64,000 bases of DNA from Atopobiaceae bacterium (GTDB lineage Bacteria; Actinomycetota; Coriobacteriia; Coriobacteriales; Atopobiaceae). Made by a program: the position numbers and the translations under genes. The stretch is taken from the NCBI GenBank assembly GCA_040268355.1, contig JAWRIT010000020.1:470-64469 (forward strand), in the 5' to 3' direction. This document shows positions 11,380 to 51,744 of the stretch, piece after piece (position 1 is the stretch's first letter; the number at the start of each line of letters is the position of its first letter). The notes under the pieces were generated by a model. That model was not told the DNA's origin and ran no database searches. It was given only the letters and a program-made list of their open reading frames with translations.

Positions 11380-11421
11380 TTTCGTTGCCGCAGAAGAGGG
11401 CGCATTGCGCCCCACCTCCTG

Positions 11422-12042: not shown

Positions 12043-12278
12043 ACCCTATCACAGGCCGAAAGCGCACGTCAAGGCCTACTGCGCACCAACGGCGACGTGC
12101 GACGTGAGCCTGCTCGAGCCGGGGTCGAGGCCCGGAGGGATGGGCACATGACAACCCTTTAGTTTCAGTTGCCTTGCTGTCGCAGGGCACGAGGTATCGC
12201 CTGCCGGCATCGGCAAGATACTGCGTAAATATAGTGTATAATGAGAAAGAAAATTGCCGATAGGAAAGACATACGAAG

Positions 12279-29831: not shown

Positions 29832-30098
29832 CTAGTGCTCCCCATAGTGCGACTTGCAGGAAGCGATCTCCAGGTTCACTCCCACGATGCGGTAGACGAG
29901 GCGGTTCTGATCGTCTATCCGGCACGACCAGAAGCCCGCTAGATCCCCGCGCAACGGCTCCGGCTTGCCCACGCCCTCGAACGGGTCGCCGCGATCGATG
30001 TCCTTTATGAGGGCGTTGATGCGCCTGAGCGTCTTGCGGTCCTGCGCTTGCCACCAGACGTAGTCCTCCCACGCCTCCGGGGCCCAGACTTTATTCAT
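29832..30098 (-). CDS. yoeB: YoeB/Txe family type II toxin
   Basis: WEDYVWWQAQDRKTLRRINALIKDIDRGDPFEGVGKPEPLRGDLAGFWSCRIDDQNRLVYRI is the YoeB signature. Confidence 0.9.
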   Translation of the reverse strand: MNKVWAPEAWEDYVWWQAQDRKTLRRINALIKDIDRGDPFEGVGKPEPLRGDLAGFWSCRIDDQNRLVYRIVGVNLEIASCKSHYGEH

Positions 30099-30351
30099 CG
30101 TCGTCGGCTAGCTCGTGGGCGACACCGTGACCGGCGTTGAGGTCGGCAACCGAGCGGCGCAGATGGGCGAGGTTCTCAGCGCTGTAGAACGGGTCGACCG
30201 AAACCTCGAACGGGATGCGACGCTCGCGGCCCATCTTCTTCGCGAAGATGGTGAATGCGGTGGTCATGCTCATCCCGAGCTCCCGGCAGACCGCCTCCAT
30301 GTCCCTTTTGACATCCTGGTCCATGCGTATGTTCACCATTGCGGTTGCCAT
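30091..30351 (-). CDS. RelB/DinJ-type antitoxin paired with YoeB
   Basis: VNIRMDQDVKRDMEAVCRELGMSMTTAFTIFAKKM is an RHH of the DinJ type. 8-nt overlap with yoeB. Confidence 0.8.
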   Translation of the reverse strand: MATAMVNIRMDQDVKRDMEAVCRELGMSMTTAFTIFAKKMGRERRIPFEVSVDPFYSAENLAHLRRSVADLNAGHGVAHELADDDE

Positions 30352-31681: not shown

Positions 31682-32810
31682 GTGGGCCTCAACAAGCGAA
31701 AGGTTCGCATCCGACATTACGACGCACGCATGGTGATCCCGCTCACGTGGGATGAGGACGGGGTGATGGAGTGCGCCTTCGCCACGCGCGCCTTTTCCCG
31801 TGGCAAGGCCGTCGACCAGCTACAGATGCACCTGCTGGGCGGCATGGGATTCTCGGCAATGGATTTGCCCTTCTTGCCTTCACAATACGCAACCGTAGAG
31901 AACGATTCGCCTTCCGAACTTTCGACTCACACAGCACAAAACGCAACGGACGCGAACGCTCTTATCGACATGGAGAGCGATCCCACGTATCGCATCGTCA
32001 TCGTTTGCTTCGACCATGAGGGAAACGAGCCTACACCCGTAGGTATCCTCCCGCTCTACGAAATGGGCAGCACCTTCCCGACTATCTCGATAGTCAAACC
32101 CGCCATCACCAACACGCACGTAGACATCTCGCCATAGAGCCAGAGCGTGCTCGCAGGCACCATAGATGCAATGCAAACGGTTGGACCTCACCTTCGATGC
32201 CTTGATTAACAAGGTTGACCTGAGCAAGATGCGCGTGTTCCCCTCGGACATGATGTTCGACAAAGAGAGCTCCAACGGCGAGGGCATCACCATCCCGTTC
32301 GGCAAGCAGGGCCGCACCGTCTTCCGCAAGGTCATGAGCACGGAGGACATGACCCACGAGTTCACGCCCGCACTTCGCACTAACGCGCAAAGCGGGGCCT
32401 TCCGTATCGCCCTGCAGATGCTCGGCGACCTCACCGGCTTTCGGCCTCACGTACTTCGGCTTCGACACCACCGAATACGTGAAGACGGCCACGGAGGTGT
32501 CGAGCGACAACTCGGCTCTCATGCGCAGAATCAAGCGGCACGAAAACCTTCTGCAGGGCTCTCTGGCCAACATCACACACGCTGTCATGGCCGTGTCGCG
32601 TCACTTAGGCGAGGTCGGCCCCGATGAGGGAGTCATCCGTATCCGTTTCGACGGCTCCATCATCCAGGACACGGATGCGGAGAAACAAAGAGACATGCGC
32701 GAGGTGGCGTCACCATGGCCGCCTGGGAGTACCGCATGAAGTGGTGAGGCGAGGACGAGAGCACGGCTAAGGCACGCGCACGCGAACTTGGTGCTGGATC
32801 CTCTAGGAGC
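31682..32810 (+). pseudogene. phage portal protein (SPP1 Gp6-like), N-terminally truncated, frameshifted, with an in-frame stop
   Basis: Portal-like pieces in three frames. The C-terminal block is KTATEVSSDNSALMRRIKRHENLLQGSL...IRIRFDGSIIQDTDAEKQRDM, then AAWEYRMKW-TGA-GEDESTAKARA. Confidence 0.6.
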
Positions 32811-33558: not shown

Positions 33559-33592
33559 ATGCAATGGTAGAGTGTACGCGAAGTTATTGCAT
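33559..33592. promoter_or_regulatory. ATGCAAT-N20-ATTGCAT inverted repeat upstream of the RHH gene
   Basis: Read directly, 26 nt upstream of the ATG at 33618. Candidate operator for the RHH protein. Confidence 0.3.
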
Positions 33593-33617
33593 TTGTCAGC
33601 TCAGCGACAGGAGGGTC

Positions 33618-33821
33618 ATGAAGTACTCCGAGCTCCTGGAAAGCGGTGCAACGGCTGCTCAGCGACAGGACTTTCTCACTGAGGGCGACCAAACACCTAT
33701 CACTCTCCGGGTTCCCAAGAACCTCAAGGATGCGGCTGCTGAGGCTGCCAAACTCCGCGGCATCAGCTTCTCCGCCTTCATCCGCAACTGCATCATCAAC
33801 GAGCTTGCGGGGAGGGCATAG
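33618..33821 (+). CDS. ribbon-helix-helix (CopG-like) protein, possible controller of the downstream operon
   Basis: Start at ATG 33618 (AGGAGGG upstream). ITLRVPKNLKDAAAEAAKLRGISFSAFIRNCIINEL has a beta-strand plus two-helix RHH pattern. Confidence 0.65.
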   Translation: MKYSELLESGATAAQRQDFLTEGDQTPITLRVPKNLKDAAAEAAKLRGISFSAFIRNCIINELAGRA

Positions 33822-33822
33822 C

Positions 33823-34521
33823 GTGGCATCGCAGGTTAAGTCGCGTCAGAGAGTACAAGACCACGGCGAAGTGTTCACCAACGAGCGCGAGGTGAACGCC
33901 ATGCTGGACATGGTGAAGCAGGAGACCGAGCGCATCGACTCCCGCTTCCTCGAACCCGCCTGCGGCGACGGCAACTTCCTCGCGGAGGTTCTGCGGCGCA
34001 AGCTTGCCGTCGTCAACAGCCGCTACCGCCGCTCGCTTTCCGAGTATGAGAAGTACACGTTCGTGGCCGTCGGCAGCATCTACGGCGTGGAGCTGCTTCA
34101 CGACAACGCCGTCGCCTGTCGCGACCGCCTTTATGGCATCGTGGAGGCAGACTATATGCGCGTGTGCAAGAAGTCGCCGACGCCCGGCTACCTTGACGCC
34201 ATCCGCTTCGTCTTGGAGCGCAACATCTTGAACGGCAACGCCCTCAGCCTCAAGGCTGTGGACGAATCAGGCTCGGACACTGATGAGCCGATCATCTTCT
34301 CGGAGTGGTCCATCGTTACCGGCGACCGAGTTAAGCGCAGGGACTTTCGCCTGGACGAGATGCTAGAGGGCAGCGCCGATCAGGCTCAATTCTCTCTTTT
34401 CGGATCTAGCGGTACCCCGACATCCGAGTGGGAGTTCGACGAGGAGACCGGAGCACTGATTCCCAAACCCATCTGGGAATACCCGTTGATTAGGCTGTAT
34501 GAGGTGCAGAACGATGAGTAA
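33823..34521 (+). CDS. SAM-binding DNA-methyltransferase-like protein lacking the NPPY catalytic motif
   Basis: GTG start at 33823 (GGGGAGGG upstream, 1 nt after the RHH stop). GEVFTNEREVNAMLDMV and motif I FLEPACGDGNFL are present, as are YGVELLHDNAVACRDRL and ILNGNAL. No (N/D)PP(Y/F) anywhere in the 232 aa. Confidence 0.7.
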   Translation: MASQVKSRQRVQDHGEVFTNEREVNAMLDMVKQETERIDSRFLEPACGDGNFLAEVLRRKLAVVNSRYRRSLSEYEKYTFVAVGSIYGVELLHDNAVACRDRLYGIVEADYMRVCKKSPTPGYLDAIRFVLERNILNGNALSLKAVDESGSDTDEPIIFSEWSIVTGDRVKRRDFRLDEMLEGSADQAQFSLFGSSGTPTSEWEFDEETGALIPKPIWEYPLIRLYEVQNDE

Positions 34522-35965
34522 CCTATTCGAGGCGACATACAACCCTGACGTGTTGAGCTGTATCGCCAACCTCAGCAATGACGAGGTCTTTACGCCACCC
34601 GAGCTTGCAAACCAGATACTTGAGTTGTTGCCTGATGGCATATGGAGCGACCCGAACGTCACTTTCTTGGACCCCGCAAGTAAGTCAGGAATCTTCCTGC
34701 GTGAGATAGCTAAGCGCCTTATTGACGGACTTGAGGACGAGCTCTCCGACCTAGAGGAGAGACTTGACCACATCTATCGAAAGCAGCTGTTCGGCGTTGC
34801 GATAACCGAGCTTACAAGCCTGCTTTCGCGGCGCAGCGTCTATTGCTCAAAGTACCCGAACAGTATCTACTCCGTCGTCAGGTTCGACGACGCAGCCGGC
34901 AACATACGCTTCAAGAACACTGAGCATGTTTGGTCAGGCGGACGCTGCGTCTACTGCGGCGCAACACAGAAGGAATACGACCGCGACAAAACGCTTGAAC
35001 AGTACGCATACGAATTCATACACCTGGATGACCCAGAAGAGGTTCTGCCCATGAAGTTTGACGTTATCGTCGGCAATCCGCCATATCAGCTCAGCGATGG
35101 CGGCAACAACGCTTCCGCCATGCCCATTTACCAGAAGTTCGTGGAGCAGGCAAAGAAGCTTAACCCGCGCTACCTGGTCATGATTACGCCCTCGCGGTGG
35201 TTCTCAGGCGGCCGAGGGCTTGACGCATATCGAGCAACAATGCTCGGCGACCGACGCATCAGGAAGCTTGTCGACTTCGAGGACGCCAACGATTGCTTCC
35301 CCGGCGTGGATATGTCGGGCGGCGTGTCGTACTTCCTGTGGGACCGAAATTACGATGGTAACTGCACTGTCGTGAACATGAAGAACGGGGTCGGAACCGA
35401 GCAACAGCGTGACCTGCGCAGATACGATATCCTTATCCGTTCGAACGAGGCCGTTTCCATCGTGGATAAAGTGCTCAGCCACACGTCGGCGTTCCTCAGC
35501 AAATACGTCAGCAGCCAACGGCCTTTCGGTTTGAGGACGTTTGCAAAGCCTTCCAAGAAGGGTGATTTGACCCTCAGGTGGCGCGAGGGCAAAGGCCCTA
35601 TAAGCAGCAGCGAGATTACTATCGGCAAGGAGTGGATAAACAAGTGGAAGGTCATCGTATCCCGTGTCGTATACGAACATGCCGGTGGAACCGACGCACA
35701 GGGCATGCGCCGCATCCTCTCTATCCTCGAGGTGCTTGGTCCGAAGGAGGTCTGCACCGAAACCTACATCGTCATCAAGACCTTTGACACCCAGGAGGAG
35801 GCGCAGAACTGTTACGAATACCTCTCGTTGAAGTTCCCCCGTTTCCTTATCAGCCAGGTCGCATCTGCCCAGATGGTCAACAAGAAGTCCTTCACCTTTG
35901 TGCCAGACGTAGACTTCACGAGAAGCTGGACGGAAGGAGCTTTACGACGAATTCGGGCTCGATGA
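34514..35965 (+). CDS. N6-adenine DNA methyltransferase (Eco57I-like, gamma class), C-terminal tail frameshifted
   Basis: ATG 34514 overlaps the upstream stop (ATGAGTAA). DEVFTPPELANQILELLP, motif I FLDPASKSGIFL, motif IV IVGNPPYQ. After ...SWTE the family-typical tail ELYDEFGLDEEEIAYIESHIKKMN continues in another frame to the TAA at 36030-36032. Confidence 0.85.
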   Translation: MSNLFEATYNPDVLSCIANLSNDEVFTPPELANQILELLPDGIWSDPNVTFLDPASKSGIFLREIAKRLIDGLEDELSDLEERLDHIYRKQLFGVAITELTSLLSRRSVYCSKYPNSIYSVVRFDDAAGNIRFKNTEHVWSGGRCVYCGATQKEYDRDKTLEQYAYEFIHLDDPEEVLPMKFDVIVGNPPYQLSDGGNNASAMPIYQKFVEQAKKLNPRYLVMITPSRWFSGGRGLDAYRATMLGDRRIRKLVDFEDANDCFPGVDMSGGVSYFLWDRNYDGNCTVVNMKNGVGTEQQRDLRRYDILIRSNEAVSIVDKVLSHTSAFLSKYVSSQRPFGLRTFAKPSKKGDLTLRWREGKGPISSSEITIGKEWINKWKVIVSRVVYEHAGGTDAQGMRRILSILEVLGPKEVCTETYIVIKTFDTQEEAQNCYEYLSLKFPRFLISQVASAQMVNKKSFTFVPDVDFTRSWTEGALRRIRAR

Positions 35966-36021
35966 GGAGGAGATCGCCTACATCGAAAGCCACATCAAAA
36001 AGATGAACACGGGTGACGGCG

Positions 36022-38988
36022 ATGCCAAGTAAAGAATTCTTTCCGCCACGGCCGGATGCGCAGCCGATTATCTACGCCTTCTGCGAACCCAATAATCGCG
36101 ATGTCAAGGGCATGCTCAAGGTCGGCTATACGGCCCGCACTTTAGAGGAGCGCATGCACGAGCACTATCCGACGTTAAAGCCTGGGCCAGTGCCCTACGA
36201 GGTCGTGTTCGTCGCCCCTGCCATGCGCACCGACGGCACGACGTTCATGGACCACGAGATCCACGAGAACCTTGCGCTGAACGGATTCAAGAAGCAGCGT
36301 GATCACGACGGCAAGAAGACCGAGTGGTTCCGCTGCACGCTCGATGACGTGAAGGCTGCATACATCGCCGTTCGTGACCGGGCCGAAAACGTCGAGCGAC
36401 GCACCCGCGACTTCAAGATGCGACCCGAGCAGGAGACCGCCGTACACAAGACTGAGGCATACTTCCACTCCGTCGAGAACGAGGGCGGCGCTCTCACGCC
36501 GAAGTTCCTGTGGAACGCCAAGATGCGGTTCGGCAAGACGTTCGCCACCTACGAGCTTGCCAAGCGCATGGGCTTCAAGCGAGTGCTGATCCTGACCTTC
36601 AAGCTCGCCGTGCTGGCGGCGTGGGAGGAAGACCTGAACACGCACGTTGACTTCGAGGGCTGGCAGTTCGTGAGCCGGCCGAAGGACCCGACCAGGCCCG
36701 ACATCGCCCAGCAGTACGCCAAGGCCGACAAGAGCAGGCCGATCGTATGCTTCGGCAGCTTCCAGGACTTCCTTGGGCGTGAGGCTCGTACGGGACGCAT
36801 CAAGGCCCACCACGAGTGGGTGCGCGAGGAGGACTGGGACCTCGTCGTGTTCGACGAGTACCACTTCGGCGCGTGGAACGACAACTCCAAGAAGCTTTTC
36901 GAGCAGGAGGAAGAGGACGAGCGCGACACCACCGAGGTCACCGACACGCGGCTCGGCAAGGTGAACACCGGCAACGAGGTGAACGAGGGCGACCTGCCCA
37001 TCGTGACGCGCTACTACCTGTTCCTCTCCGGCACGCCCTTCCGGGCGCTCAACAGCGGCGAGTTCATTGAGGAGCAGATCTACAACTGGACCTACTCCGA
37101 CGAGCAGGCGGCCAAGGAGGCCTGGCCCGCCGAGCATCCCGGCAAGCCCAACCCGTACGCGTCGCTGCCGCGCATGGTGATGCTCGCCTACCAGATGCCC
37201 GACGAGATAAAGAACGTGGCGCTGGGTGGCGAGTACAACAGCTTCGACCTGAACGCCTTCTTCGAGGCGACCGGCGAGGGCGACAGCGCGGAGTTCGTGC
37301 TCAAGGACTCGGTCCAGAAGTGGCTCGACCTTATACGCGGCTCCTACAAGCCCTCTGCCGTGGACGACCTCAAGCTGGGCGCCGAGAAACCAGCTCTTCC
37401 ATACGCCGACACGCGCCTGCTGCGGGTGCTCAATCACACGCTCTGGTACCTGCCGCGCGTGAACAGCTGCTACGCGATGCGCAACCTCCTGCGCGAACCG
37501 CAGAACGTGTTCTTCCACGACTACACAATCAACGTATGTGCGGGCACCGAGGCCGGCATCGGCATGGTCGCGCTCGACAAGGTGCGCGAGACCATGGAGG
37601 ACCCGCTGCACTCCCAAACCATCACGCTGACCTGTGGCAAGCTGACCACGGGCGTGACCGTTAAGCCGTGGTGCGGGATATTCATGCTCGCCAACATGCG
37701 CAGCCCCGAAACCTACTTCCAGGCCGCCTTCCGCGTGCAGTCGCCATGGACCGTAGAAAACGACGCCAGCAAGATGGAGATCGTGAAGCAGGAATGCTAC
37801 GTTTTCGACTTCGCTCTAGACCGGTCGCTCCGTATGGTCTCCGACTACTCATGCCGCCTGAAGGTGGACGGGAATGTGGGTCCCGAGCAGAAGGTCGGCG
37901 AGTTCATCAACTTCCTTCCCGTGCTTGCCTATGACGGCAGCGCCATGCGTCCCGTGAGCGCGGCTGACATCCTCGACATCGCCATGGCTGGCACATCCGC
38001 GACGCTGCTTGCAAGGCGCTGGGAATCCGCTCTGCTTGTCAACGTGGACAACGACACGCTTCGCCGCATCCTCAACAACGAGGACGCGCTCAACGCCCTC
38101 ATGAGCATCGAGGGCTTCCGCTCGCTCAACGCCGACATCGAGACCATCATCAATCGGTCCGAGGCCATCAAGAAGGTCAAGCGTGGGAAGGAAGAGATGA
38201 CCCCCAAGGAGAAGAAGCAGATCTCCGAGGAGGAGAAGGAGCTCAAGAGCAAGCGCAAGCAGATCCAGGAGAAGCTGATCAAGTTCGCCACGCGCATACC
38301 GGTCTTCATGTACCTGACCGACTACCGCGAGGAGACCCTGAAGGACGTTATCACGCAGCTTGAGCCAGGGCTCTTCAAGAAGGTGACCGGCCTCACCGTC
38401 GCTGACTTCGAGCTGCTGGTATCTCTCGGCGTCTTCAACGACGCGTTGATGAACGATGCCGTTTACAAGTTCCGCCGCTACGAGGACTCCTCGTTGCGCT
38501 ACACCGGCATCGACCGACACGCTGGCGAGCGCGTCGGCTTGTTCGACACGTCGCTCAGCGAGTTCGAGTACATGGCCATGGCCCAAGAGGAGTCGATGGT
38601 TGCGCCGAACGGTCTTGCGAGGCCCGTCGGGCGTGCGACCGGCGCGAGCGCGAAGGTACCCACACGCAAACTGGCTGCTGCCAGCAAGCCTGCAGGCGGC
38701 GGCGACACGCGCACGGCCAAGGCCACCGTGCCCGTGGCAAAGCCCACGCCCAAGAAGGCCGAGAGCCGCAGGATCGAGCGCGGCGACGCCCGCACGGCCG
38801 CCAAGCCCTCCCAGAATGCAGCGAGGCGTGACTGGATCGTTGAGGCGCTGGAAGACGCCGGGCTCAAGTACCTGGACAAGCGCGGCAACTCTGGCTGCCT
38901 GTGGGTCATCGGCGCGAGCGAACTCTCTGGCCGCATGAAGGAGCTTGAGCTGCGCGGGGCGCGGTTCAGGTTCAGCTCGACGACCTAG
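36022..38988 (+). CDS. T5orf172/GIY-YIG nuclease domain fused to an SF2 (DExH, type III Res-like) helicase
   Basis: N-terminus: IIYAFCEP...MLKVGYTARTLEERMHEH...TEWFRCTLDDV (T5orf172-type GIY-YIG). Helicase motif I MRFGKTF, motif II VVFDEYHFG, motif III FLSGTPF. Lys/Glu-rich coiled segment near aa 700-750. Confidence 0.8.
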   Translation: MPSKEFFPPRPDAQPIIYAFCEPNNRDVKGMLKVGYTARTLEERMHEHYPTLKPGPVPYEVVFVAPAMRTDGTTFMDHEIHENLALNGFKKQRDHDGKKTEWFRCTLDDVKAAYIAVRDRAENVERRTRDFKMRPEQETAVHKTEAYFHSVENEGGALTPKFLWNAKMRFGKTFATYELAKRMGFKRVLILTFKLAVLAAWEEDLNTHVDFEGWQFVSRPKDPTRPDIAQQYAKADKSRPIVCFGSFQDFLGREARTGRIKAHHEWVREEDWDLVVFDEYHFGAWNDNSKKLFEQEEEDERDTTEVTDTRLGKVNTGNEVNEGDLPIVTRYYLFLSGTPFRALNSGEFIEEQIYNWTYSDEQAAKEAWPAEHPGKPNPYASLPRMVMLAYQMPDEIKNVALGGEYNSFDLNAFFEATGEGDSAEFVLKDSVQKWLDLIRGSYKPSAVDDLKLGAEKPALPYADTRLLRVLNHTLWYLPRVNSCYAMRNLLREPQNVFFHDYTINVCAGTEAGIGMVALDKVRETMEDPLHSQTITLTCGKLTTGVTVKPWCGIFMLANMRSPETYFQAAFRVQSPWTVENDASKMEIVKQECYVFDFALDRSLRMVSDYSCRLKVDGNVGPEQKVGEFINFLPVLAYDGSAMRPVSAADILDIAMAGTSATLLARRWESALLVNVDNDTLRRILNNEDALNALMSIEGFRSLNADIETIINRSEAIKKVKRGKEEMTPKEKKQISEEEKELKSKRKQIQEKLIKFATRIPVFMYLTDYREETLKDVITQLEPGLFKKVTGLTVADFELLVSLGVFNDALMNDAVYKFRRYEDSSLRYTGIDRHAGERVGLFDTSLSEFEYMAMAQEESMVAPNGLARPVGRATGASAKVPTRKLAAASKPAGGGDTRTAKATVPVAKPTPKKAESRRIERGDARTAAKPSQNAARRDWIVEALEDAGLKYLDKRGNSGCLWVIGASELSGRMKELELRGARFRFSSTT

Positions 38989-39002
38989 AGCCGGGTGACA
39001 CT

Positions 39003-39155
39003 GTGCTTCACAAGGCCTTCGGATACGGGCGGATCATCGACATCGATGAGTCCTACGTGGAAGTCACGTTCGACTCGGACAACAAGAAGAAGAAATCGTC
39101 TCGCAAGTTCATCTTCCCTGGGGCGTTCCACCAGGGGCTGCTGCAGATTGGGTAG
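39003..39155 (+). CDS. 50-aa ORF resembling the small beta-barrel tail found at the C-terminus of UvrD-like helicases
   Basis: Not in the ORF track (<60 aa). The frame opens at 38949 and reads LEPGDTVLHKAFGYGRIIDIDESYVEVTFDSDNKKKKSSRKFIFPGAFHQGLLQIG-stop. The only canonical start is GTG 39003. It may instead be the frameshifted tail of the helicase. Confidence 0.35.
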   Translation: MLHKAFGYGRIIDIDESYVEVTFDSDNKKKKSSRKFIFPGAFHQGLLQIG

Positions 39156-39162
39156 GTGTGTC

Positions 39163-42100
39163 TTGGGAATATTCGATAAGTTCAACAATCAGAGCTTGAG
39201 CAATCAGGATGCTTTCGAGGAACTGTGCTGCCAGCTCTTCGAGACATGGGGTGTGCATTCAAGGGGCTTTGATAGCGGTTGGGATTATCGAGACATCCGA
39301 GGTGCCGGTGGCGACGGGGGCATTGAGGCCTATTGGTATAACCAGAATGACGACCAGTACATCGGTATTCAGGCGAAGTGGTTCCCAAAGACCATCACAG
39401 ACAATCAATATGGGCAGGTAAGAGGCTCAATCAAAACGGCGGTGGAACTACGACCGACCTTGTCCACATACATCATCTGCATACCGCATAATCTTACATC
39501 CGTGCATGTTGGAAGGGGTAAGATCGTAACACCCGGAGAAGAAGCGTCATGGAAGTCGTTCGTGGACGAGATCGCTGAGGATTATCCCAAGGTCAAGTTC
39601 TTGCTCTGGGACGAGCATCACATCGAAAACCTGCTGCAAGATCCTGCGAATGAAGGTCGCCTACGGTTTTGGTTCAAAAAGTCTGCGGTTAACCCAGCTA
39701 CCGTAAAGCTTGCCTTGAACGAAGCAATCCAAAGCCTTAATGATCGTTATGTGCCTGAGATCACCGATGATGGCGGCCTTGCTACTTTTCTTGACAACTT
39801 CTTTGGCACGATTGAAAGTAGAAAGCTCACGGTCAAGGACATCGATGCCTGCCTGGATGTCTGCCACAGCCTTGAATACGTCACCGATTCTTTCATTGGC
39901 GTAGGGGACAAGATATCGGATGAGCTCAAGTCTTCGACCATCCGATGCCACGATGCCATTTGTGCGTATGCCGATGCCCTATCCCAGTGGCGCTCCGCGC
40001 TCATTGCGGAGCCGCGTGGGCTGATTAATGTTGCAAGCATGACTGTCGATTACGGTGCAATCGAAGAGTTCGAATCCGACATCCAGGACCTGAAGGACAA
40101 ATACAAGCTTACCGGACATGCGGATGAGCTGATTAAGCTGATCGATAAGTTCAGAGGGCTGCCTGGCGAATATGAGATTCGACAGGCAATGCACTATGCT
40201 TTCAGCTCCCCTCACTGTCTTGTTGTCGGCGAGCAAGGAACCGGTAAGACCTGTGGGTTCGCAAGCGAAGCTACCGGCTACCTCAACAACGGGAAGCATT
40301 TACCCATCCTTTTGAGAGCCGGCGACATCAGCGAGCATGACGGTTGGAGGCAGATAATCACGAGCGCCCTTGGCCTTACCGACTGGACGGAAGCTCAGCT
40401 ATGGCAAGCGTTGAGTGCGTCCGCTGCCATGTACGACAAGCGTGAGGATGATATTACCGTCAGGGCAAAAGTTGCGATCTTTGTTGATGGGCTGGATGAA
40501 AAGCAGCCTGCGTCACGATGGACGACACTCATCAGGCAAGGCGATGCAATCGCAAAGGAATACCCGAGAATGAGATTCGCTTATTCCACGCGTCCTCACG
40601 GTGTTGAACGTGACGGTGCCGATGATTTGTGGGACTGCTGGTACCGTATCGATAAAAACGGTGATGTTCCTGCATGGAAGCTTTTCGACCGTTATATTGA
40701 GCACTACTCAATAGATCTGGATGGCAATACCCGTTATAAGTGGCTGCTCAAAACGCCCATGGAGTTGCACATGTTCTGCACCGCTTATGGCGGAAGACCA
40801 ATCGACAGGGAGGTTTCAACCTGCCTGACCTCTCTCGTTAGGGCCGAGGTCAAGAGGCTTGATGAAGAGTATGCCGCACGTAACGCGAAATCGAATGGTA
40901 TCCACGAAACACCAGTCTGGTCCACGCTCGCCGCACTTGCGAACTCGTTCCTGCTGGATGATAGCCCTCGGGATCGCGCAATAATTGGCGGTTTGATAGG
41001 GGTGACTGGGATTCAACGTGAAGATATTGGCTTGATGCTCGACTTTCTCGAAATGTACGGGATTCTTACTACCGTACGAAATCTTGGTCCTACGAGTGTG
41101 TCTCCTCCCGTATTCACATATCAGCCCGGTTCACGTCATTTGTGGGACTACTTCATGGCTGTAATGCTCATGAATACCGATGACGGAATGGCCGCCGAAC
41201 TCCTCTCCAAACATAAAGACACTGCTCGCATGTACGCGATATTGCTGGTTGAAAAATGCGGCACCCTGCCCCTTGAGAGCAATGCTCTCGTCAACGCCCT
41301 TGGAACCGGCGGAGCTCGCCGGGTGACCATAGATGCTCTGGCAAGCGCGGAGAAGGGTGCTGCCGGCAAATTCAGGCAGTGGGCGCTTGGCGAGATGGCA
41401 AAGGGCAGAGAATCACTCTCTGAGATCGTCAATGGCATAGTCGTTCAAGTAGCGTGCGAGCAGGATCACCCTCTTGGGCCTCTGATGTTCGATGAGTACA
41501 TGAGAACATTCCCAACGCCAATCGAACGAGATCGGGTATGGGCGACACCAAGGGAGATGTCAAACGGCTACGGACTGTCGATGTACTACGAGCGAGATGC
41601 CGTGCGACACTTGCCTCGGCTACACGAGAACGATCACTGGAATCAAATGCCGCTCTTATTGGCCTGGTGCCTGATTGCAGTCAGCAACCTGCAACGGCGT
41701 CACTGCAGAAACGAGCTAGTGCAGTGGGCAATGACCAATCCCGACGAGTATGCCGAGCTGTTTGCACGGTTTGTCAATTGCGATGACCCTCAAGTCCGTG
41801 AAGACATGTTTGCCATCGCAGAGGAGGTAGTCTGTCAAGGAGAGGCAGACTTGAGCGTCAAGAAACGTTTTGCTGACATCGTTCTCGAGGCCTTATTCAA
41901 GAATCCTGACAAACCAGGAAACAGGGACGCCTCGCTGCGCCATTACGGAAGGATGCTTGTCGAGCATTGTGGCGAGAAAGGACTTGTCGGCCAGAAAGAC
42001 ATCGAACTGTGCAGGCCGCCTTACGCAGTTGAAGACAGATCGATTGCACTGCCCATTTACGCCGCCGCTGCCGAATCGGAACGAATGGGCGGTTACGAGA

Positions 42101-43557
42101 CCATCCACTACGACCTGGCCCGCTATGTGCTCGTAGACAAGCTTGAAAGCGCGTTCGGTATTTCTCGTTTCCATGGCAACGGCGACCACGACTTCGACGA
42201 TGCGCTGCAAATCGTCAAAAGGTCTGCTGATGCAGCGGGCATCGACGTGCCGAAGTTTGAGGGATGGGTTATTTCCGCCGCTTACCAGTACCTCGTTGAC
42301 CATGGTTACGATACAGACGCTTTCGTCGGCCCCCTCGATGACGAAGGCTATCGCCATGGAGGCATCGACTATAAGATATCTGGTGCATTCGGAAGCGCCG
42401 ACCATGGTTCAAGAAGCACGGTCATGACAGTCGCTGAGAAGTACGCCTGGTGCGCAAGGGCTGAAATCTGCGGTTTCATGGCAGACAGGGTGCCAATGTA
42501 TAGGAGCGCCTGGCAGAACGGTAATACCAACGAATCCTATGAGCTTGTCCACGACTACTCAGACCTGCTCAGTTATCAAAGCCCCCTTTTCGAGGCAACT
42601 GTGAACAGACTGACGGTGGAACGGGAGGGCATCACACCGGTTTTCCCACCCGCTTTCACGTGCGAGGACGGCGATCAGTTATGTTCGGAGCAAGAGCTCA
42701 ATGATTGGATCGGGGCGGGTGACGCCGAGTCCCTTGTTTCGCTCATCGAGCATGTGCCCGACGTTGATTTCTCGATTGATGGATCCACCGTTCCCGTTGC
42801 GCTATATGCAAGCGACTGGGGGATTTGCGGCAAGCAGGCCCGCGCTTGGATCTACGCTGGAGCCATGGCTTCCAGCGAACTTTCCAAGCTTTCGGAATTC
42901 GGGACGGTGGCAATAGCAGGCTACGACCATGCCTCCGCATTTGCTACGGGCATTGCTTGCGAAGCAACCTATATCTCGCCAGTCGAATACTTGTCAGCTC
43001 CTTGGCTTACCGAATACGACGAGGACCACGAGAGGGCTAAGATAGCCGATGTCCATGTCGAGGCATCACCTCTATCAGGAAGCGGTGTTGACAGCCTTAC
43101 TGACATTGGAGATTGCTGGTATCGATTCCCCTCAAAGCTTGCGATGGACCTGTGTGGAGTAACGCGCACCGACGGCGTACGCTACTTCGATACGAATGGC
43201 ATGGTCGCGTTTGAGGATATTGAGTATGGTGAGCCTTACAGGAAACATTACCAGGCTTTGCTTGCAAGCAGAGACAGACTTTATGGAGCCCTTGACGAGA
43301 GAGACTTGCATCCCGTTTGGTATGTCACTCTCCAAAGAGATGGCAACAGGCTTGCTGATGAACGGTTGCGTCAGGTCGATGCGCGCACCGAAACTTCTTG
43401 GCTGATTTGGATAGGGGCAGACGACAAGTACTGTTCGTGTCTCATGTCGGATGAGTATCCCGTGCCAGAACGGACTTATGAACCATCAGGGCTAATTGCA
43501 GAATTCCTTGAAAAGTATGCCGCTCATGATGACGAGGGCGAGGAAACAAGCGACTAG
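39163..43557 (+). CDS. Mrr-like PD-(D/E)xK nuclease - NACHT/STAND NTPase - large uncharacterised C-terminal domain
   Basis: Preferred start is TTG 39163 (GGGTAGGTG upstream; alternative TTG 39148). Nuclease core GAGGDGGIEAYW...IGIQAKW (39301-39381). Walker A VVGEQGTGKT (~40228-40251). Walker B AIFVDGLDE (~40474-40500). About 950 further aa have no repeat periodicity I can see. Confidence 0.8.
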   Translation: MGIFDKFNNQSLSNQDAFEELCCQLFETWGVHSRGFDSGWDYRDIRGAGGDGGIEAYWYNQNDDQYIGIQAKWFPKTITDNQYGQVRGSIKTAVELRPTLSTYIICIPHNLTSVHVGRGKIVTPGEEASWKSFVDEIAEDYPKVKFLLWDEHHIENLLQDPANEGRLRFWFKKSAVNPATVKLALNEAIQSLNDRYVPEITDDGGLATFLDNFFGTIESRKLTVKDIDACLDVCHSLEYVTDSFIGVGDKISDELKSSTIRCHDAICAYADALSQWRSALIAEPRGLINVASMTVDYGAIEEFESDIQDLKDKYKLTGHADELIKLIDKFRGLPGEYEIRQAMHYAFSSPHCLVVGEQGTGKTCGFASEATGYLNNGKHLPILLRAGDISEHDGWRQIITSALGLTDWTEAQLWQALSASAAMYDKREDDITVRAKVAIFVDGLDEKQPASRWTTLIRQGDAIAKEYPRMRFAYSTRPHGVERDGADDLWDCWYRIDKNGDVPAWKLFDRYIEHYSIDLDGNTRYKWLLKTPMELHMFCTAYGGRPIDREVSTCLTSLVRAEVKRLDEEYAARNAKSNGIHETPVWSTLAALANSFLLDDSPRDRAIIGGLIGVTGIQREDIGLMLDFLEMYGILTTVRNLGPTSVSPPVFTYQPGSRHLWDYFMAVMLMNTDDGMAAELLSKHKDTARMYAILLVEKCGTLPLESNALVNALGTGGARRVTIDALASAEKGAAGKFRQWALGEMAKGRESLSEIVNGIVVQVACEQDHPLGPLMFDEYMRTFPTPIERDRVWATPREMSNGYGLSMYYERDAVRHLPRLHENDHWNQMPLLLAWCLIAVSNLQRRHCRNELVQWAMTNPDEYAELFARFVNCDDPQVREDMFAIAEEVVCQGEADLSVKKRFADIVLEALFKNPDKPGNRDASLRHYGRMLVEHCGEKGLVGQKDIELCRPPYAVEDRSIALPIYAAAAESERMGGYETIHYDLARYVLVDKLESAFGISRFHGNGDHDFDDALQIVKRSADAAGIDVPKFEGWVISAAYQYLVDHGYDTDAFVGPLDDEGYRHGGIDYKISGAFGSADHGSRSTVMTVAEKYAWCARAEICGFMADRVPMYRSAWQNGNTNESYELVHDYSDLLSYQSPLFEATVNRLTVEREGITPVFPPAFTCEDGDQLCSEQELNDWIGAGDAESLVSLIEHVPDVDFSIDGSTVPVALYASDWGICGKQARAWIYAGAMASSELSKLSEFGTVAIAGYDHASAFATGIACEATYISPVEYLSAPWLTEYDEDHERAKIADVHVEASPLSGSGVDSLTDIGDCWYRFPSKLAMDLCGVTRTDGVRYFDTNGMVAFEDIEYGEPYRKHYQALLASRDRLYGALDERDLHPVWYVTLQRDGNRLADERLRQVDARTETSWLIWIGADDKYCSCLMSDEYPVPERTYEPSGLIAEFLEKYAAHDDEGEETSD

Positions 43558-43586
43558 CACATACTCCGTTCCCTCGCACCTTGTGA

Positions 43587-43620
43587 CAGCCCCTTAACCT
43601 CATCGCAGGTTAAGGGGCTG
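43587..43620 (+). terminator. intrinsic terminator: 13-bp perfect stem CAGCCCCTTAACC / GGTTAAGGGGCTG, 8-nt loop, then CCGCTTTCTCT
   Basis: Read directly, 30 nt after the stop of the NACHT gene. Confidence 0.7.
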
Positions 43621-43668: not shown

Positions 43669-44202
43669 ATGGACGGTGAGCAGAATGGCACGCAAGAGGG
43701 CACGCAGAACGCGCAGGAGCAAGGGCAGCAGCAGCTCCAGCAGACGGCGTCAGTACAGGTAGACAACGGGGGCAACGAATCTGGAAACGCACCCGCCCCC
43801 GACTACGAACGACAGATCGCCGAGCGCGACGAGAAGATCGCATCCCTTGAGGCGCGGATCGCCGAGGCTGCCAAGAGCGCCGAGCAGGCGGAGAAACTCT
43901 CCGCCGAGATCGCCGAGCTTAAACAGGCAAGCGCAGACGAGCGTATCGACTTCTTCCTGCAGCTCGCGGGGTGCCGCAACGTGAAGGCTGCCCGTGCCGT
44001 CCTGGACGACTACGACGGCGGCATCGACAAGATGAGGGAGGCCGAGCCCTGGCTCTTCGCCAAACACATGGGCGGCGACAACTCCGGCGGCCAGACCGGA
44101 AAGACAGGGCTTCCCAACGCGGGCGCGGCATCCAACGAGGGCAAGACGATGGCCCACCGGCGCGAGATCGCCGGGCTCGCCGACGACAAGGACAAGGAAT
44201 AG
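43669..44202 (+). CDS. phage scaffolding protein
   Basis: Gln-rich N-terminus, a long coiled coil (ERDEKIASLEARIAEAAKSAEQAEKLSAEIAELK) and ...REAEPWLFAK, directly upstream of a capsid gene. Confidence 0.7.
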   Translation: MDGEQNGTQEGTQNAQEQGQQQLQQTASVQVDNGGNESGNAPAPDYERQIAERDEKIASLEARIAEAAKSAEQAEKLSAEIAELKQASADERIDFFLQLAGCRNVKAARAVLDDYDGGIDKMREAEPWLFAKHMGGDNSGGQTGKTGLPNAGAASNEGKTMAHRREIAGLADDKDKE

Positions 44203-44235: not shown

Positions 44236-44900
44236 ATGCCTAACAGCATCGCATTCGTGAAGAACTACACCAGCCTGATCGACGAGGTCTACCAGCGCGC
44301 GGCCGTATCGACCGTGCTCAACTCCGGGCGCCGCATGGTGCGTGCCGGCCACAACGCCAAGGAGATCATGATTCCGAAGATCAGCGTCACCGGCCTTGGC
44401 GACTACACCCGAAACGTCGGCTACAAGACCGGCACCATCACCTACGAGTTCGAAACCAAGACGTTCAACTACGACCGCGGCATCCGCCTGCTCGCCGACG
44501 TCATGGACGTGGAGGAGGCCGGCGTCCTGGATTGCTTCGTTGGAGGTGGGCGCCGAGCTGCAGCGCACGCAGGTGGCGCCCGAGGCCGACGCCTTCACCT
44601 TCAGCCAGATCGCCTCCCACGACGGCGTGGCCATGACGAGCGAGGACCTGTCTGCCGCCTCCGCGACCGACATCCTGGCGTCGCTGCGCGAGGTCACGAG
44701 CGACATGGACGAGAAGCAGGTCTCCACGGGGTCGCGCATCCTGTTCATCACACTGACGCTCAAGGGCGTGCTGGACGACTTCTCCTACGCGAGCCCGACG
44801 CGCTCCAACCGCATGCTCGAACGCTTCAGCCGCGTGGTGGAGGCGCCGCAGGTGCGCTTCTGCGCGGCGATCGACCTGCTTTCCGGCGGCGATCTCACAG
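44236..44900 (+). pseudogene. phage major capsid protein, frameshifted and 3'-truncated
   Basis: IAFVKNYTSLIDEVYQRAAVSTVLN...VTGLGDYTRNVGYKTGTITYEFETKTFNYDRGIRLLADVMDVEEAG, then a frame change near 44540 to EVGAELQRTQVAPEADAFTFSQIA... The normal C-terminus is lost near 44900. Confidence 0.65.
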
Positions 44901-44909
44901 CGATTCGAG

Positions 44910-45809
44910 GTGGATGCGTCCGGCTACTCGTCGGGTTCCGCGCAGCCCTGGGACGGCGTCAAGTCTCAGGTCACGCGCGTCGTCTTCGATTCCGCCTTCG
45001 CTGACGCAGACATGACGAACCTGGCCTACTTCTGCATGTCCTTTTCCAACTGCACGGAGGTCGTGGGCCTCCAGTACCGCGCTGGCGTGACCGACGTGAA
45101 GCAGATGTTCTCGAGCTACAACAGCCTGGAGGCCATCTACGCCATGACGTTCGACAACTCGACCATCACGAGCTACAGCACGGTCCTCTACGGGTGCAAC
45201 CGGCTTGTGGGCAGCACGGACGGCTTCGTGCCCACGAGCACGAGCGGCAAGACCGTGCTCAAGGTTAGTTCCGGCGGCGCGCCGACGGACCTGGGCAGCG
45301 ACGCCCGCACGTGGTTCCACGCCTTCTACTACGCCGACGACGCCGGCGTGCTCTCGGCGAGTTCTGCGGCGGACTCCACAAAGGAGCTCATCGCCACGAA
45401 CCGGATCTGCGCCATCGGCAAGTACCAGGGGCTGGGCTTCACGCCGTAGGACGGCAACACAGGCGCGACGCACCGCGAGCACCTTGCCAGCGCGAGCTTC
45501 GCGGCCGACATGGCCACGTTCGCGTACCTGAACCTGAACCACCTGTTCTACAGCTGCACGAACCTTGCTGCTGTTTCTGGCCTGGACAACTTGGCGAACG
45601 TCTAATACATGCGCTTCGCGTTCGCCTCGTCGGCGGTGACGGAACTGGACTTCCGAGGCTTCAACCCATCTAAGCTGAAGGACGTGGCCTACCTCTTCTC
45701 GAGCAGCCTGGTTGGCGGCAACGGGACTGCCTACGCGAGCTCCAAGGCCAGCTACAACCACTTCCGCATCGACACGGCGAGCACGCCCGGATACCTGACA
45801 GCAGCCTAG
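44910..45809 (+). pseudogene. BspA/DUF285-type leucine-rich-repeat protein with two in-frame stop codons
   Basis: Repeats of the xMFxxCxxL type (MSFSNCTEVVGL, KQMFSSYNSLEAI, VLYGCNRLVG, HLFYSCTNLAAVSGL, YMRFAFASSAVTELD). A single frame is interrupted by TAG 45447-45449 and TAA 45603-45605. Confidence 0.55.
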
Positions 45810-45873: not shown

Positions 45874-46035
45874 CTATCTTGTCCCTTGCAAAACGACAGC
45901 GCCTCCGCCTAAAACCAGGGCGCCTAGTCCAACTTTCTTCGCACGTTCGGCGGCGACGCCTTTGTGGTACTCGCAAACCGGCAGCTTAGATCCTTCTGGA
46001 AGCTCCTTTTTACAGATGATGCATTTGGCAGCCAT
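45874..46035 (-). CDS. 53-aa zinc-finger-like protein with Gly-rich hydrophobic tail
   Basis: Not in the ORF track. Translated by hand: MAAKCIICKKELPEGSKLPVCEYHKGVAAERAKKVGLGALVLGGGAVVLQGTR. The ATG overlaps the upstream TAA (TAATG), with AGGGA 5 nt upstream. Confidence 0.5.
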   Translation of the reverse strand: MAAKCIICKKELPEGSKLPVCEYHKGVAAERAKKVGLGALVLGGGAVVLQGTR

Positions 46036-47168
46036 TATTGTCCCTGGCTTTCTTCGTCGTCTTCCTCCGGTCCTTCTTCGTCAATCACGATGGAACCATC
46101 ACCCAACAACCCTGCCGGCTCTTCTGAGCTTTCAATTTGCAAGCTTACTACCGAACTCGATATCTCCACGAAACCCCTGACGATGTCTTCGCGGTTGCCC
46201 TTGCTGTAAGAATTGAGCAGGCGTAGCGTCTCTGGGTTTTCTAGCTTGTTTTCCAAGATGAACTGTTTGAACTGCCCAAGCGCGGCGTTGGCAGCTTCCG
46301 GCTCCTCGAGGACGCGATAAGCCGCGTATTCCGTCTTGGCCATGAGCGCAACTACCGTAAGGTCGACCATTGCGGTGTTGGCCGCCTTGCCCCAATCTTT
46401 CGCTTTGCCTTGTTTTCCCATGGCCAGCAATAGTTCAGCTTTGAAGTTCCCTTGCAGTGTGCATCTTGCCTGAGTTGCTGACGAGGCGATATCGAGGATC
46501 TTTATTTCGCGAAGGCGTGAATCCTCGATGAGCATGGCTTGTTGTAGTTGCTGCCAGGCGCTTTCCGCCAGGGCTATCCTGTCCGCCTGGTTCTCGATCC
46601 GAAGCGCCTCGACGTTGGCGGCTACGGCTTCGATCGCATCCATGATGTTCGCCATCATCACCTGCATCTGGATATCAACGACCGACTGCGTCATGTCCTG
46701 CGGCATCTGCTCCGCCTTGAGCCTTGCCTGCTCGACAACATGGCCTGTCTTCTTGCTCCTCAATGTCGGCAGCAGGGCGCCTGTCTTCTTCTCGACGCTC
46801 AGCACGAGCTCGCCGTTTTTCATCATCTCCTCGGCTGCTGCGGTGAAGTCCGCCACATACTTGATGTCTCCACGGCCCACGAGCTTCTTGATGATGTCGT
46901 AGATTGCCGGAGCGAATCGAGCCATGTTGTCGGCATCGGCCAGGAACTTTACGAGCGATTCGTTGTTCTTGGCAGGAATAAGGCTCATGCCATTGTCGAA
47001 GACAGAGGCTTCGAGCACCGTCACTCTGGGCGTGACCGTAGCGGGAGGCAGCGAACTTATCGGGACGATATCTGTTCCTTCGCTCTTTGCGGTGAATCCG
47101 CAGTGAGGGCAAGTGGTCGCGCTAGAAGATATCTTCGCATGGCATTCGGGGCAGAAGATCAATGACAC
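46035..47168 (-). CDS. zinc-ribbon protein with long helical C-terminal domain, function unknown
   Basis: N-terminus MSLIFCPECHAKISSSATTCPHCG (zinc ribbon), then ~330 aa of predicted helices and an acidic tail (EEGPEEDDEESQGQ). No enzymatic motif recognised. Confidence 0.7.
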   Translation of the reverse strand: MSLIFCPECHAKISSSATTCPHCGFTAKSEGTDIVPISSLPPATVTPRVTVLEASVFDNGMSLIPAKNNESLVKFLADADNMARFAPAIYDIIKKLVGRGDIKYVADFTAAAEEMMKNGELVLSVEKKTGALLPTLRSKKTGHVVEQARLKAEQMPQDMTQSVVDIQMQVMMANIMDAIEAVAANVEALRIENQADRIALAESAWQQLQQAMLIEDSRLREIKILDIASSATQARCTLQGNFKAELLLAMGKQGKAKDWGKAANTAMVDLTVVALMAKTEYAAYRVLEEPEAANAALGQFKQFILENKLENPETLRLLNSYSKGNREDIVRGFVEISSSVVSLQIESSEEPAGLLGDGSIVIDEEGPEEDDEESQGQ

Positions 47169-50410: not shown

Positions 50411-51643
50411 TCAGAAAGTCCTTCCTTCTTGTATGAACTCGGGGATGTTCGCATGAATGATGCCGTCCCTTTGCTGAATGGGATCGCTTCGCGTTAACAG
50501 GTACTTCGGATAGTTGTCCCTGACCTGGGCGAAGGGGCGGTACTCTCGTTCCTCGGTGGCCTGATCAGCCATGATGGTCATGGCAACTTGGATGTAGACA
50601 TAGCCCATCTGGGGACTCCTCAAGATGAAGTCGCATTCTAACTTTCCGATCCGTCCAACGCTGATCTTGCAGCCCTGCGCACGGGCGTAGGAATAGACGA
50701 TGTTCTCCAGCACTGGTCCGTAGTTGATGCGATTGTCGGTGTTGAGTGCGAAGTAGAAGCCCAGGTCTGCCAGGTAGTACTTTTGCTCGCCTTGCAGGGA
50801 CTTGCGAGACTTCAGATCGAATCGGGTGCACTTGCTGATGATCTTCGCATCCTCGAGGATCTGGAGATAGCGCGCGAGGGTCTCCCTCTTAATCTTCAGA
50901 CCTTGCCTTCCTTCGAGGTCAGATTGGATGTTGCTAAGCGACACGGTGGCGCCGAAGTTGTTGATGACGTAGTCGCGCACCTGGTTGAACACCGAGACGT
51001 TCTTCACCTTCACACGCTTGCGAATGTCCTTCTGGAAGATCTCCTCGACGACTGCGGTGACATAGGCGCGCTTGTCCGCAAGCTGGGGATAATCCAGCGC
51101 CTTGGGAAAGCCTCCCTCGAGAATATACGAGTCGAACTCCGCGACGGGGTTTGGATTGACGGAGACTCCGAGGAAGCGTTTCATCTGGCAGTACTCACCG
51201 AAGTCCAGTGTCTGCATTTCGAACTCGATGTAGCGGCCGGTAAGCTTCGTGGCCAACTCGCCTGAGAGCAGGTAGGAGTTTGATCCGGTAATGAAGATGG
51301 AGAAGCCGCCCTCAGTGCGGAACTCGTTGAGCACCTCCTCGAAGCCTTCGACGTTTTGGATCTCATCGATGAAGAGGTACTTCATCCCTGCAATGTCGAG
51401 CATCGGCTCGATGAGGGCCTCGAGTTGCTCCGGGGCTTCTACGGAGCGATATCCGTATCTGTCGAGATCGAAATACGCAATGTGGTCGTCGGCGATGCCT
51501 TCATCCCTCAGCTCCTCTACGATGTACTTCATGAGGCAGGACTTGCCGCAGCGTCGAACGCCAGTGATGACTTTGATCATCCCGTCATCATGATAGAACC
51601 CACGAATCTTCTTCAGGTAGTTTTCTCGGGGGAACAGACGCAT
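50411..51643 (-). CDS. AAA-type ATPase with DUF4143-like C-terminal domain
   Basis: Start at ATG 51643. Walker A ITGVRRCGKS, Walker B YLFIDEIQ, then the ...KYYLADLGF... segment typical of this family. Confidence 0.8.
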   Translation of the reverse strand: MRLFPRENYLKKIRGFYHDDGMIKVITGVRRCGKSCLMKYIVEELRDEGIADDHIAYFDLDRYGYRSVEAPEQLEALIEPMLDIAGMKYLFIDEIQNVEGFEEVLNEFRTEGGFSIFITGSNSYLLSGELATKLTGRYIEFEMQTLDFGEYCQMKRFLGVSVNPNPVAEFDSYILEGGFPKALDYPQLADKRAYVTAVVEEIFQKDIRKRVKVKNVSVFNQVRDYVINNFGATVSLSNIQSDLEGRQGLKIKRETLARYLQILEDAKIISKCTRFDLKSRKSLQGEQKYYLADLGFYFALNTDNRINYGPVLENIVYSYARAQGCKISVGRIGKLECDFILRSPQMGYVYIQVAMTIMADQATEEREYRPFAQVRDNYPKYLLTRSDPIQQRDGIIHANIPEFIQEGRTF

Positions 51644-51744
51644 TATGGCTCCAATCTTCACTGGAGCCATACTACCAAATCACGCGATTATGGGGGTATT
51701 TTTCATCAAGTAAGCGATTTATACCCCAATAACTAAGGAATTTG

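Follow-up and report, generated by a model that had tools for sequence, protein, structure and literature searches.

The restriction-modification (R-M) system DrdVI consists of two methylase genes, M1.DrdVI and M2.DrdVI, and a gene for a restriction subunit described as 'a fused translocase and REase' (restriction endonuclease) with a GIY-YIG domain (PMC4996451). The literature on DrdVI and the related MaeIV (M1/M2.MaeIV) covers methylation, in which M1 and M2 jointly modify an asymmetric motif to N6-methyladenine (m6A), and DrdVI-like relics have been reported in Bibersteinia. A second combination of this kind is DnmA(YeeA)-YeeB-YeeC of Bacillus subtilis and Vibrio, which forms one conserved operon found in defence islands (PMC9973331). 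Among antiviral STAND proteins, KpAvs2 is tripartite, with a nuclease, a STAND NTPase and a C-terminal sensor, and requires the accessory gene Avap2 (PMC11564622). Here, we analysed a block of five plus-strand genes in a stretch of 64,000 nucleotides from an Atopobiaceae bacterium (contig JAWRIT010000020.1; the whole stretch is called the window below). The genes encode a small ribbon-helix-helix (RHH) protein, M1, M2, R and a large Avs2-like protein. With a probability of roughly 0.8, sequence comparison indicates that the block holds two named phage-defence systems, a DrdVI-type R-M and Avs2, behind a small regulator gene, and no new composite system.

Assignment of the genes to DrdVI-type R-M and Avs2

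The three genes that follow the RHH gene are the same, and in the same order, as those of DrdVI. M1 is 42% identical to M1.DrdVI (E = 2e-49) and M2 is 44% identical to M2.DrdVI (E = 1e-145), both over essentially their full length, and R is 54% identical to the DrdVI restriction protein over 867 aa (E = 0). The methylase is split in the same manner, with M1 carrying only the S-adenosylmethionine (SAM) motif and M2 carrying NPPY and an Eco57I domain (Pfam, 1.1e-36), and R is likewise a fusion of a GIY-YIG/T5orf172 nuclease (Pfam T5orf172, 1.2e-12; ResIII also matched) with a superfamily 2 (SF2) translocase. In R, the residues K36, V37, G38, T40, R47 and E104, and the motifs GKT (174-176), DEYH (281-284) and SGTP (339-342), are invariant in sequences from four phyla. 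By homology, then, M1-M2-R is an R-M of the DrdVI "split methylase" type, a family named in REBASE.

Searches of other collections returned the same assignment. The best PADLOC models for the proteins of the block were MTase_II, REase_MTase_IIG and Avs2, and both M2 and R matched the fused Type IIG model PDLC03626, R at model positions 137-802 and M2 at 863-1320. Through short megablast matches of the helicase gene to plasmid DNA, plasmids of three phyla were identified, one each in Mycolicibacterium, Deinococcus and Rhizobium; they share the gene order small methyltransferase, Eco57I-domain methylase and GIY-YIG/DEAD-box protein; the Deinococcus plasmid is pDrdVI, from strain NEB 479 (Deinococcus wulumuqiensis). 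When a metagenome collection was scanned with four aligned R proteins as the query, 580 relatives were confirmed. The best 80 of these and the three plasmids were taken as a set of 83 R loci, 60 of which had enough upstream DNA, and M1 and M2 were colinear upstream of R in 59 of those 60.

The window cassette differs from DrdVI in several respects. At 44% M2 identity, its recognition motif is probably not GCAGCC. Its R belongs to a sub-branch with a C-terminal extension of ~200 aa that ends in a Tudor-like domain, which is frameshifted here, as is the tail of M2. In addition, an RHH gene precedes the cassette in Coriobacteriia relatives only. DnmA-YeeB-YeeC also combines an adenine methylase related to MmeI and Eco57I with an SF2 helicase and a T5orf172 protein but, as described, its methylase is a single protein and its helicase and T5orf172 protein are separate, whereas the window has a split methylase and a helicase-nuclease fusion.

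The large protein encoded by the fifth gene is, by profile comparison, a divergent member of the Avs2 family. Six PADLOC Avs2 models matched it (best 4.7e-60, next 1.5e-56). A profile built from 17 homologues aligned colinearly, over positions 185-956, with the solved structure 9o4e_A ('AVAST type 2 anti-phage system protein Avs2'; E = 2.6e-18); a search of solved structures with the single sequence found no match, and only the alignment profile reached 9o4e. In the 17 homologues, D51, E55 and Q70-A71-K72 are invariant and fit an N-terminal PD-(D/E)xK nuclease motif that has no Pfam Mrr match. The Walker A motif GTGKT (359-363, with K362) is also invariant, as are D442, G443, D445 and E446 of the Walker B motif DGLDE (442-446), and a long C-terminal sensor follows the STAND NTPase. 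The layout corresponds to that of KpAvs2, as do the lysines mutated in that protein, with K72 of the window protein in a position like that of KpAvs2 K71. Unlike described Avs2 systems, the window gene has no Avap1- or Avap2-like accessory genes among its called neighbours. Its relatives come from Olsenella, Collinsella and other Atopobiaceae; the clade is confined to Coriobacteriia, and its members often stand at the 3' end of an RHH-led operon.

The original prediction had described the block as a composite that fits no named system, and had offered Hma (a PADLOC candidate; helicase-methylase-ATPase) as the nearest grouping. Profile and pairwise searches contradict the first statement, placing genes 2-4 with DrdVI-type R-M and gene 5 with Avs2. 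The likeness to Hma is confined to the presence of a helicase and a methylase in one operon, and no Hma model matched any of the five proteins (PADLOC, E <= 0.01). Membership of the MADS system was also rejected: M1 scored 21.7 bits against the NF047738 (MAD2) cut-off of 720, and PADLOC mad2 gave only partial matches (1.7e-5 and 1.3e-6).

The features of the block and of its flanks are listed in Table 1. The tight same-strand packing noted earlier was verified in its details: a 1-nt gap at 33822 between the RHH gene and M1, an 8-nt overlap of M1 and M2 (34514-34521), and a spacing of 7 nt between 39155 and 39163. When its frame is corrected, the M2 tail reaches a TAA at 36030-36032 and overlaps the R ATG at 36022 by 11 nt, as had been reported; counted from the GTG at 36013, the start used in the intact orthologue L095, the overlap is 20 nt. 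The number of genes had to be lowered from six to five. The open reading frame (ORF) that ends at 39155 is the C-terminal domain of R itself, out of frame, and a separate sixth gene is ruled out there by the related loci: 30 of them have the corresponding Tudor-like domain (GDTV.HKAFGYG...) after the R core, and in all 30 it shares the reading frame of R. Among the predicted domains, those of the RHH protein (weakly), the SAM-motif protein without NPPY, the NPPY Eco57I-type methylase and the T5orf172/GIY-YIG nuclease with SF2 helicase were recovered; the Mrr and NACHT domains were not found in Pfam. The proposed terminator is a strong hairpin (-31.7 kcal/mol, z = -5.3) with a perfect stem of 14 bp, not 13. 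Its U-tract is weak, and a simple terminator scan made no call.

Table 1. Positions in the window of the five-gene block, its putative control elements and its phage-like flanks
Feature	Position	Strand	Description and basis
Phage portal gene, two fragments (upstream flank)	31682-32627	+	phrog_533, 3.4e-8 and 8e-4
Promoter/operator-like leader of the RHH gene	33559-33592	+	Conserved layout; putative function
RHH gene, 67 aa	33618-33821	+	Presumed transcriptional regulator; conserved first gene of the operon
M1, 232 aa	33823-34521	+	Small subunit of split adenine methyltransferase; SAM motif I EPACGDGNF, no NPPY
M2	34514-36032 (ORF stop at 35965)	+	Eco57I-domain NPPY adenine methyltransferase with target-recognition part
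R	36013-38988	+	T5orf172/GIY-YIG nuclease fused to SF2 (DEYH) translocase; DrdVI-type restriction subunit
R C-terminal Tudor-like remnant, out of frame	38950-39155	+	Comparison with relatives
Avs2-family antiviral STAND protein, 1464 aa, conserved TTG start	39163-43557	+	PADLOC models; profile match to 9o4e_A
Hairpin, probable operon terminator	43587-43620	+	14-bp stem
Head scaffolding gene (downstream flank)	43669-44202	+	Pfam Phage_scaffold, 3.2e-8; phrog_194 scaffold, 5.5e-6
Major head protein gene, N-terminal fragment (downstream flank)	44236-45015	+	phrog_422, 2.5e-25, profile positions 1-94 of 297

Neighbourhoods of the two systems and the RHH-led operon

Whether the two systems belong together was judged from the loci of their relatives, and the NACHT-type gene was found beside the methylase/helicase genes in none of them. 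Among the best 80 R relatives, 45 loci had at least 3 kb of downstream DNA, and at none of these, nor on any of the three plasmids, did Avs2 lie beside the DrdVI-type R. In the closest R-M relatives (L095, L175, L178), a GmrSD type IV enzyme follows R in the place of Avs2. The orthologues of Avs2 were found in other company: after a XamI-type REase and an unrelated methylase (L004, L013), after an MmeI-type enzyme and GmrSD (L005-7), after a methylase and a PstI-type REase (L016), directly after an RHH gene (L015), or without any R-M (L009-L012, L014, L017-L020). Two of the results on which the original prediction was to be abandoned, assignment of the genes to known systems and a lack of co-occurrence elsewhere, were obtained.

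The locus of Olsenella sp. oral taxon 809 (L004) is syntenic with the window. Its homology runs to 33401, resumes exactly at 39163 and continues to 44629, and this break indicates an exchange of the cargo that separates RHH from Avs2. At every locus, DNA homology to the Avs2 orthologues begins at 39161-39169. Orthologues that lie in other contexts are likewise followed by the hairpin, 5 pairs of which show compensatory changes, so the Avs2 gene moves as a module of gene plus terminator. Homology, gene order, the lack of co-occurrence and the swapping of cargo between RHH and Avs2 are direct observations. Base composition also separates the modules. The earlier suggestion of horizontal acquisition is supported: the block lies between phage portal and scaffold remnants in an island of ~62% GC that extends to about 52 kb, beyond which the core genome is ~69% GC. 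The low GC on which the suggestion was based holds for M1/M2 (0.55-0.56) and the Avs2 gene (0.51-0.56), but not for R (0.62-0.63), which is like the surrounding island (~0.62). GC content at third codon positions (GC3) is 0.87 in R, 0.70 in M2 and 0.58 in the Avs2 gene, indicating that the modules have different histories.

An R-M lies directly upstream of Avs2 on the same strand in 5 of about 12 distinct contexts of the Coriobacteriia clade, compared with about 5 of 73 distant Avs2-like loci. This difference suggests that the adjacency reflects the RHH-led cargo site and not Avs2 in general. At two of the orthologous loci (L011 and L009), the 70 nt upstream of the Avs2 start resemble the 3' end of the GmrSD gene of L005, with no gene called there in L011; judging from this similarity, a GmrSD-Avs2 pair may have been ancestral in several contexts and later eroded. 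Three loci from Lachnospiraceae/Clostridiaceae (L021, L024, L026; 7276-9930) contain a distant Avs2-like gene (~27% identity) with a co-oriented ORF of 884 aa located 71 nt upstream. These ORFs are probably the three upstream ORFs that match ResIII, and restriction-type helicases may have become neighbours of Avs2-like genes independently at these loci.

The RHH protein gave weak Pfam matches (DUF6290, HicB, NikA-like and RHH_1), a PHROG match to an Arc-like repressor (3.5e-4) and a score of 35.6 bits, above the cut-off of 30, for the NCBIfam family YlcI/YnfO_N, which is otherwise uncharacterised. With a profile, 366 homologues were recovered, with lengths of about 67 aa. Homologues with 39-50% identity head the Avs2-containing operons of L004, L005-7, L013 and L015. 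Among the 83 R loci, the RHH gene was present in L095 only, and was absent from the three plasmids and from 79 of the 80 metagenomic loci. Rare at R loci, yet found at the head of varied operons, the RHH gene is tied neither to the DrdVI cassette nor to Avs2. The same absences led us to reject it as a part of the cassette, and a role as an Avs2 accessory protein was rejected because most RHH-led operons lack Avs2. It is unlikely to be a type II antitoxin, since no toxin-like gene follows it and the RelB score is 22.8 bits against a cut-off of 50.

The leader of the RHH gene contains an extended -10-like element, TGgTAGAGT (33565-33573), the box TTATTGCAT (33584-33592), 7-bp inverted arms around the -10 (ATGCAAT, 33559-33565, and ATTGCAT, 33586-33592), and an AGGAGG ribosome-binding site (33609-33614). 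A TAGAAT/TATAAT-like -10, followed after 10-15 nt by a TATTGCA-like box, is also present upstream of the RHH homologues in L095, L175, L004, L005, L013, L015 and L180. A generic sigma-70 scan made no call on the window leader. The RHH protein is a candidate repressor of its own promoter. Controller (C) proteins of R-M systems are likewise small DNA-binding proteins encoded first in the operon, but the window leader encodes an RHH and not a helix-turn-helix protein, and RHH genes head non-R-M genes as well.

The contexts retrieved for RHH homologues comprise at least 14 different line-ups of defence genes on Coriobacteriia mobile elements. In each, the RHH gene comes first and is followed on the same strand, at a distance of up to about 80 nt, by the next gene, which in 13 of 14 is an R-M component or an R-M remnant. 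DrdVI-type R-M is followed by Avs2 (the window) or by GmrSD, or contains an embedded PDC-S02 nuclease and is followed by GmrSD. XamI-type R-M is followed by Avs2. MmeI-type enzymes are combined with GmrSD and Avs2, with GmrSD, an 809-aa protein and AbiH, or with DUF6414, AAA and SLFN-like genes. A further line-up consists of SNF2, DUF4391, an N6_N4 methylase and ResIII, with optional OLD, SLFN or second-methylase inserts, and in another the RHH gene is followed directly by Avs2. Altogether, the cargo includes R-M of at least four types, GmrSD, PDC-S02, Avs2, AbiH, SLFN-like and OLD-family genes.

Two of these operons show where single genes have been added. In L095, a gene for a YhcG/DUF1016 PDDEXK nuclease (3463-4611; PADLOC PDC-S02, 5.8e-121) lies between M1 and M2, with overlaps of a few bases on both sides. 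In L180-L185 (9001-18200), where the RHH gene heads SNF2 helicase, DUF4391, N6_N4 methylase and ResIII/RE_endonuc genes on mobilisable elements (relaxase, ArdC), single extra genes (OLD-TOPRIM, SLFN_AlbA_2 or a second methylase) are found at one shared internal position.

The conserved promoter and the 67-aa RHH gene may act as a portable leader for swappable defence cargo on Coriobacteriia mobile elements, with the RHH protein setting the expression of multi-system operons, a proposal to which we give about an even chance. A stronger version, in which R-M cargo and Avs2 are kept in one transcript since joint regulation is selected, is possible. No description of an RHH-led swappable defence operon was found in the literature searched, in what was a narrow search.

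Proposed operation of the block and alternative readings

If the block works as its homologies suggest, transcription would probably start at the RHH promoter, under autorepression by the RHH protein, and continue through all five genes as far as the hairpin 3' of Avs2. The single transcription unit originally proposed is plausible from the spacing; co-transcription, autoregulation by RHH and the enzymatic activities are all inferences. M1 and M2 would form an N6-adenine methyltransferase that marks a short asymmetric motif in host DNA, and R would translocate on unmethylated incoming DNA and cut it in an ATP-dependent manner. By analogy with characterised Avs2, the large protein would sense a phage protein such as the large terminase and oligomerise, whereupon its N-terminal nuclease would degrade DNA and the infection would be aborted. 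R-M and Avs2 would then provide additive, layered immunity, neither needing the other. Side by side in this block, the two systems very likely represent independent, parallel layers in a modular defence operon, situated at a cargo hotspot of a decayed phage-like element.

Several observations weigh against this interpretation. Pfam found neither an Mrr nor a NACHT domain in the Avs2 protein, and no match at all, and the NCBIfam Avs2 equivalog NF041813 scored 51.6 bits against a cut-off of 1000; on these grounds we call the protein divergent. A biochemical study of DrdVI cleavage was not found in the literature searched. Where Avs2 orthologues occur outside an RHH operon, their transcription must start from promoters of their own, which makes an internal promoter possible in the window too. 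A selective or regulatory link between R-M and Avs2 in this clade is possible as well. Finally, the reading frames of M2 and R are not intact, both being frameshifted at the 3' end relative to L095 and L175. The R-M may be impaired by these frameshifts, or they may be assembly errors.

The frameshifts raise the alternative that survives best, though we consider it unlikely: that they are real and the R-M is a decaying relic that has lost restriction and retains at most an orphan methylase, leaving Avs2 as the sole working defence gene. M2 has a 1-nt frameshift near 35931-35937 that removes the conserved tail of ~30 aa (ELYDEFGLDEEEIAYIESHIKKM...) from its frame; the tail continues in another frame to 36032, and is in frame in the intact orthologues of 506/507 aa (L095, L175). 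In R, three-frame comparison with the intact orthologues of 1063-1067 aa from the same two loci shows a deletion and a frameshift, with ~35-40 codons gone before the Tudor-like domain and the frame of that domain lost. Decay is seen among the relatives too, for example as IS1595 insertions in M2, and there are precedents in the DrdVI-like relics of Bibersteinia and in a DnmA-YeeB-YeeC relic in B. subtilis. Against a relic, M1, M2 and R have all kept their catalytic motifs, and the M2 shift is a single base that could be an assembly error. Moreover, DrdVI R has only 851 aa and no C-terminal extension at all; despite its truncation, the window R therefore spans a complete core of DrdVI length. 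The insertions just mentioned are in L176, L177 and L179 (about 11070-12140), where an IS1595-family transposase gene interrupts the 3' part of M2 in an operon of this RHH-DrdVI type; L177 has, in addition, an inverted R gene beyond the insertion.

It is rather improbable that the block is a plain juxtaposition in a defence island with separate promoters, in which RHH controls only the R-M, in the manner of a C protein, or nothing, and Avs2 is transcribed alone. Such an arrangement would be in keeping with an Avs2 gene that travels together with its own 3' hairpin and is homologous from the start codon onwards, with Avs2 orthologues that function in contexts without an RHH gene, and with the R-M component or remnant that follows RHH in all but one of the 14 line-ups. 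However, a promoter scan of 38900-39163 predicted no promoter-like site, only 7-60 nt separate Avs2 from the preceding gene in five contexts, and in L015 Avs2 comes directly after the RHH gene.

Least of all do we expect a true composite, with the methylation/translocase module and Avs2 interdependent, for instance through methylation-guided self/non-self control of the Avs2 nuclease: despite the tight packing with its 7-nt junction, the recurrence of same-strand R-M directly upstream of Avs2 in the clade and the dependence of some Avs2 proteins on accessory genes, as for KpAvs2 with Avap2 (PMC11564622), the upstream R-M types are mutually unrelated (DrdVI, XamI, MmeI and PstI types), Avs2 is missing from all 45 DrdVI-type loci with sufficient downstream DNA, and it also occurs directly after an RHH gene or without R-M.

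The phage-like element around the block

Several RHH-led operons are carried on elements with relaxase and integrase genes. Others belong to phage-like elements in which terminase and portal genes precede the operon and a scaffold gene follows it. The window operon occupies this same site, between portal fragments and the scaffold and major head genes. The region of the portal fragments is homologous to 6136-6671 of L004, which has a weak SPP1_portal call. The scaffold gene appears intact; only the first ~95 residues of the major head protein are left. With portal and major head genes reduced to fragments, the element has evidently decayed. An intact prophage or phage was rejected on the same fragments and on an empty megablast search of 29000-52000 against 50,697 phage records. 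Relatives L187-L192 retain primase, AAA_25 helicase, large terminase and portal genes, and resemble a small capsid-encoding island. Variable defence cargo at a fixed position in phages and satellites is attributed to Rousset et al. 2022, as cited within PMC11564622. The window site shares with such hotspots the variable cargo, the fixed position and the mobile phage-like element, but it is placed between portal and scaffold genes, in elements of Coriobacteriia.

The borders of the variable region carry other genes. At its left edge is a YoeB toxin/RelB antitoxin pair on the minus strand (29832-30351; Pfam 7.6e-34 and 3.6e-10), and in L193 the matching position holds a PhdYeFM antitoxin gene and a TfoX_N gene. 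To the right, an AAA_14 + DUF4143 ATPase gene (50411-51670, minus strand) adjoins guaA (51745-52728), and genes of its family recur near Avs2 in L004 and L015. In L009, Avs2 is directly beside guaA, which marks guaA as the right border. Between the block and this border, a zinc-ribbon protein gene (46035-47168, minus strand) matches the uncharacterised phage family phrog_31650 over its whole length (6.1e-110).

These results remove a false lead, in that methylase/helicase genes next to an NLR-like gene represent two known systems here and not a new methylation-guided NLR system. What is new is modest: an RHH-led swappable operon at a portal/scaffold hotspot, built of parts of known kinds. DrdVI-type split-methylase R-M is very widespread, as the number of relatives confirmed in one metagenome scan attests, and is a reasonable target for study. 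Avs2, a sensor of phage packaging proteins, is found here inside a decayed phage-like element, between portal and capsid genes, and the RHH-led operon, with its modules exchanged at gene boundaries, offers a convenient natural setting in which to study the exchange and co-regulation of defence genes.

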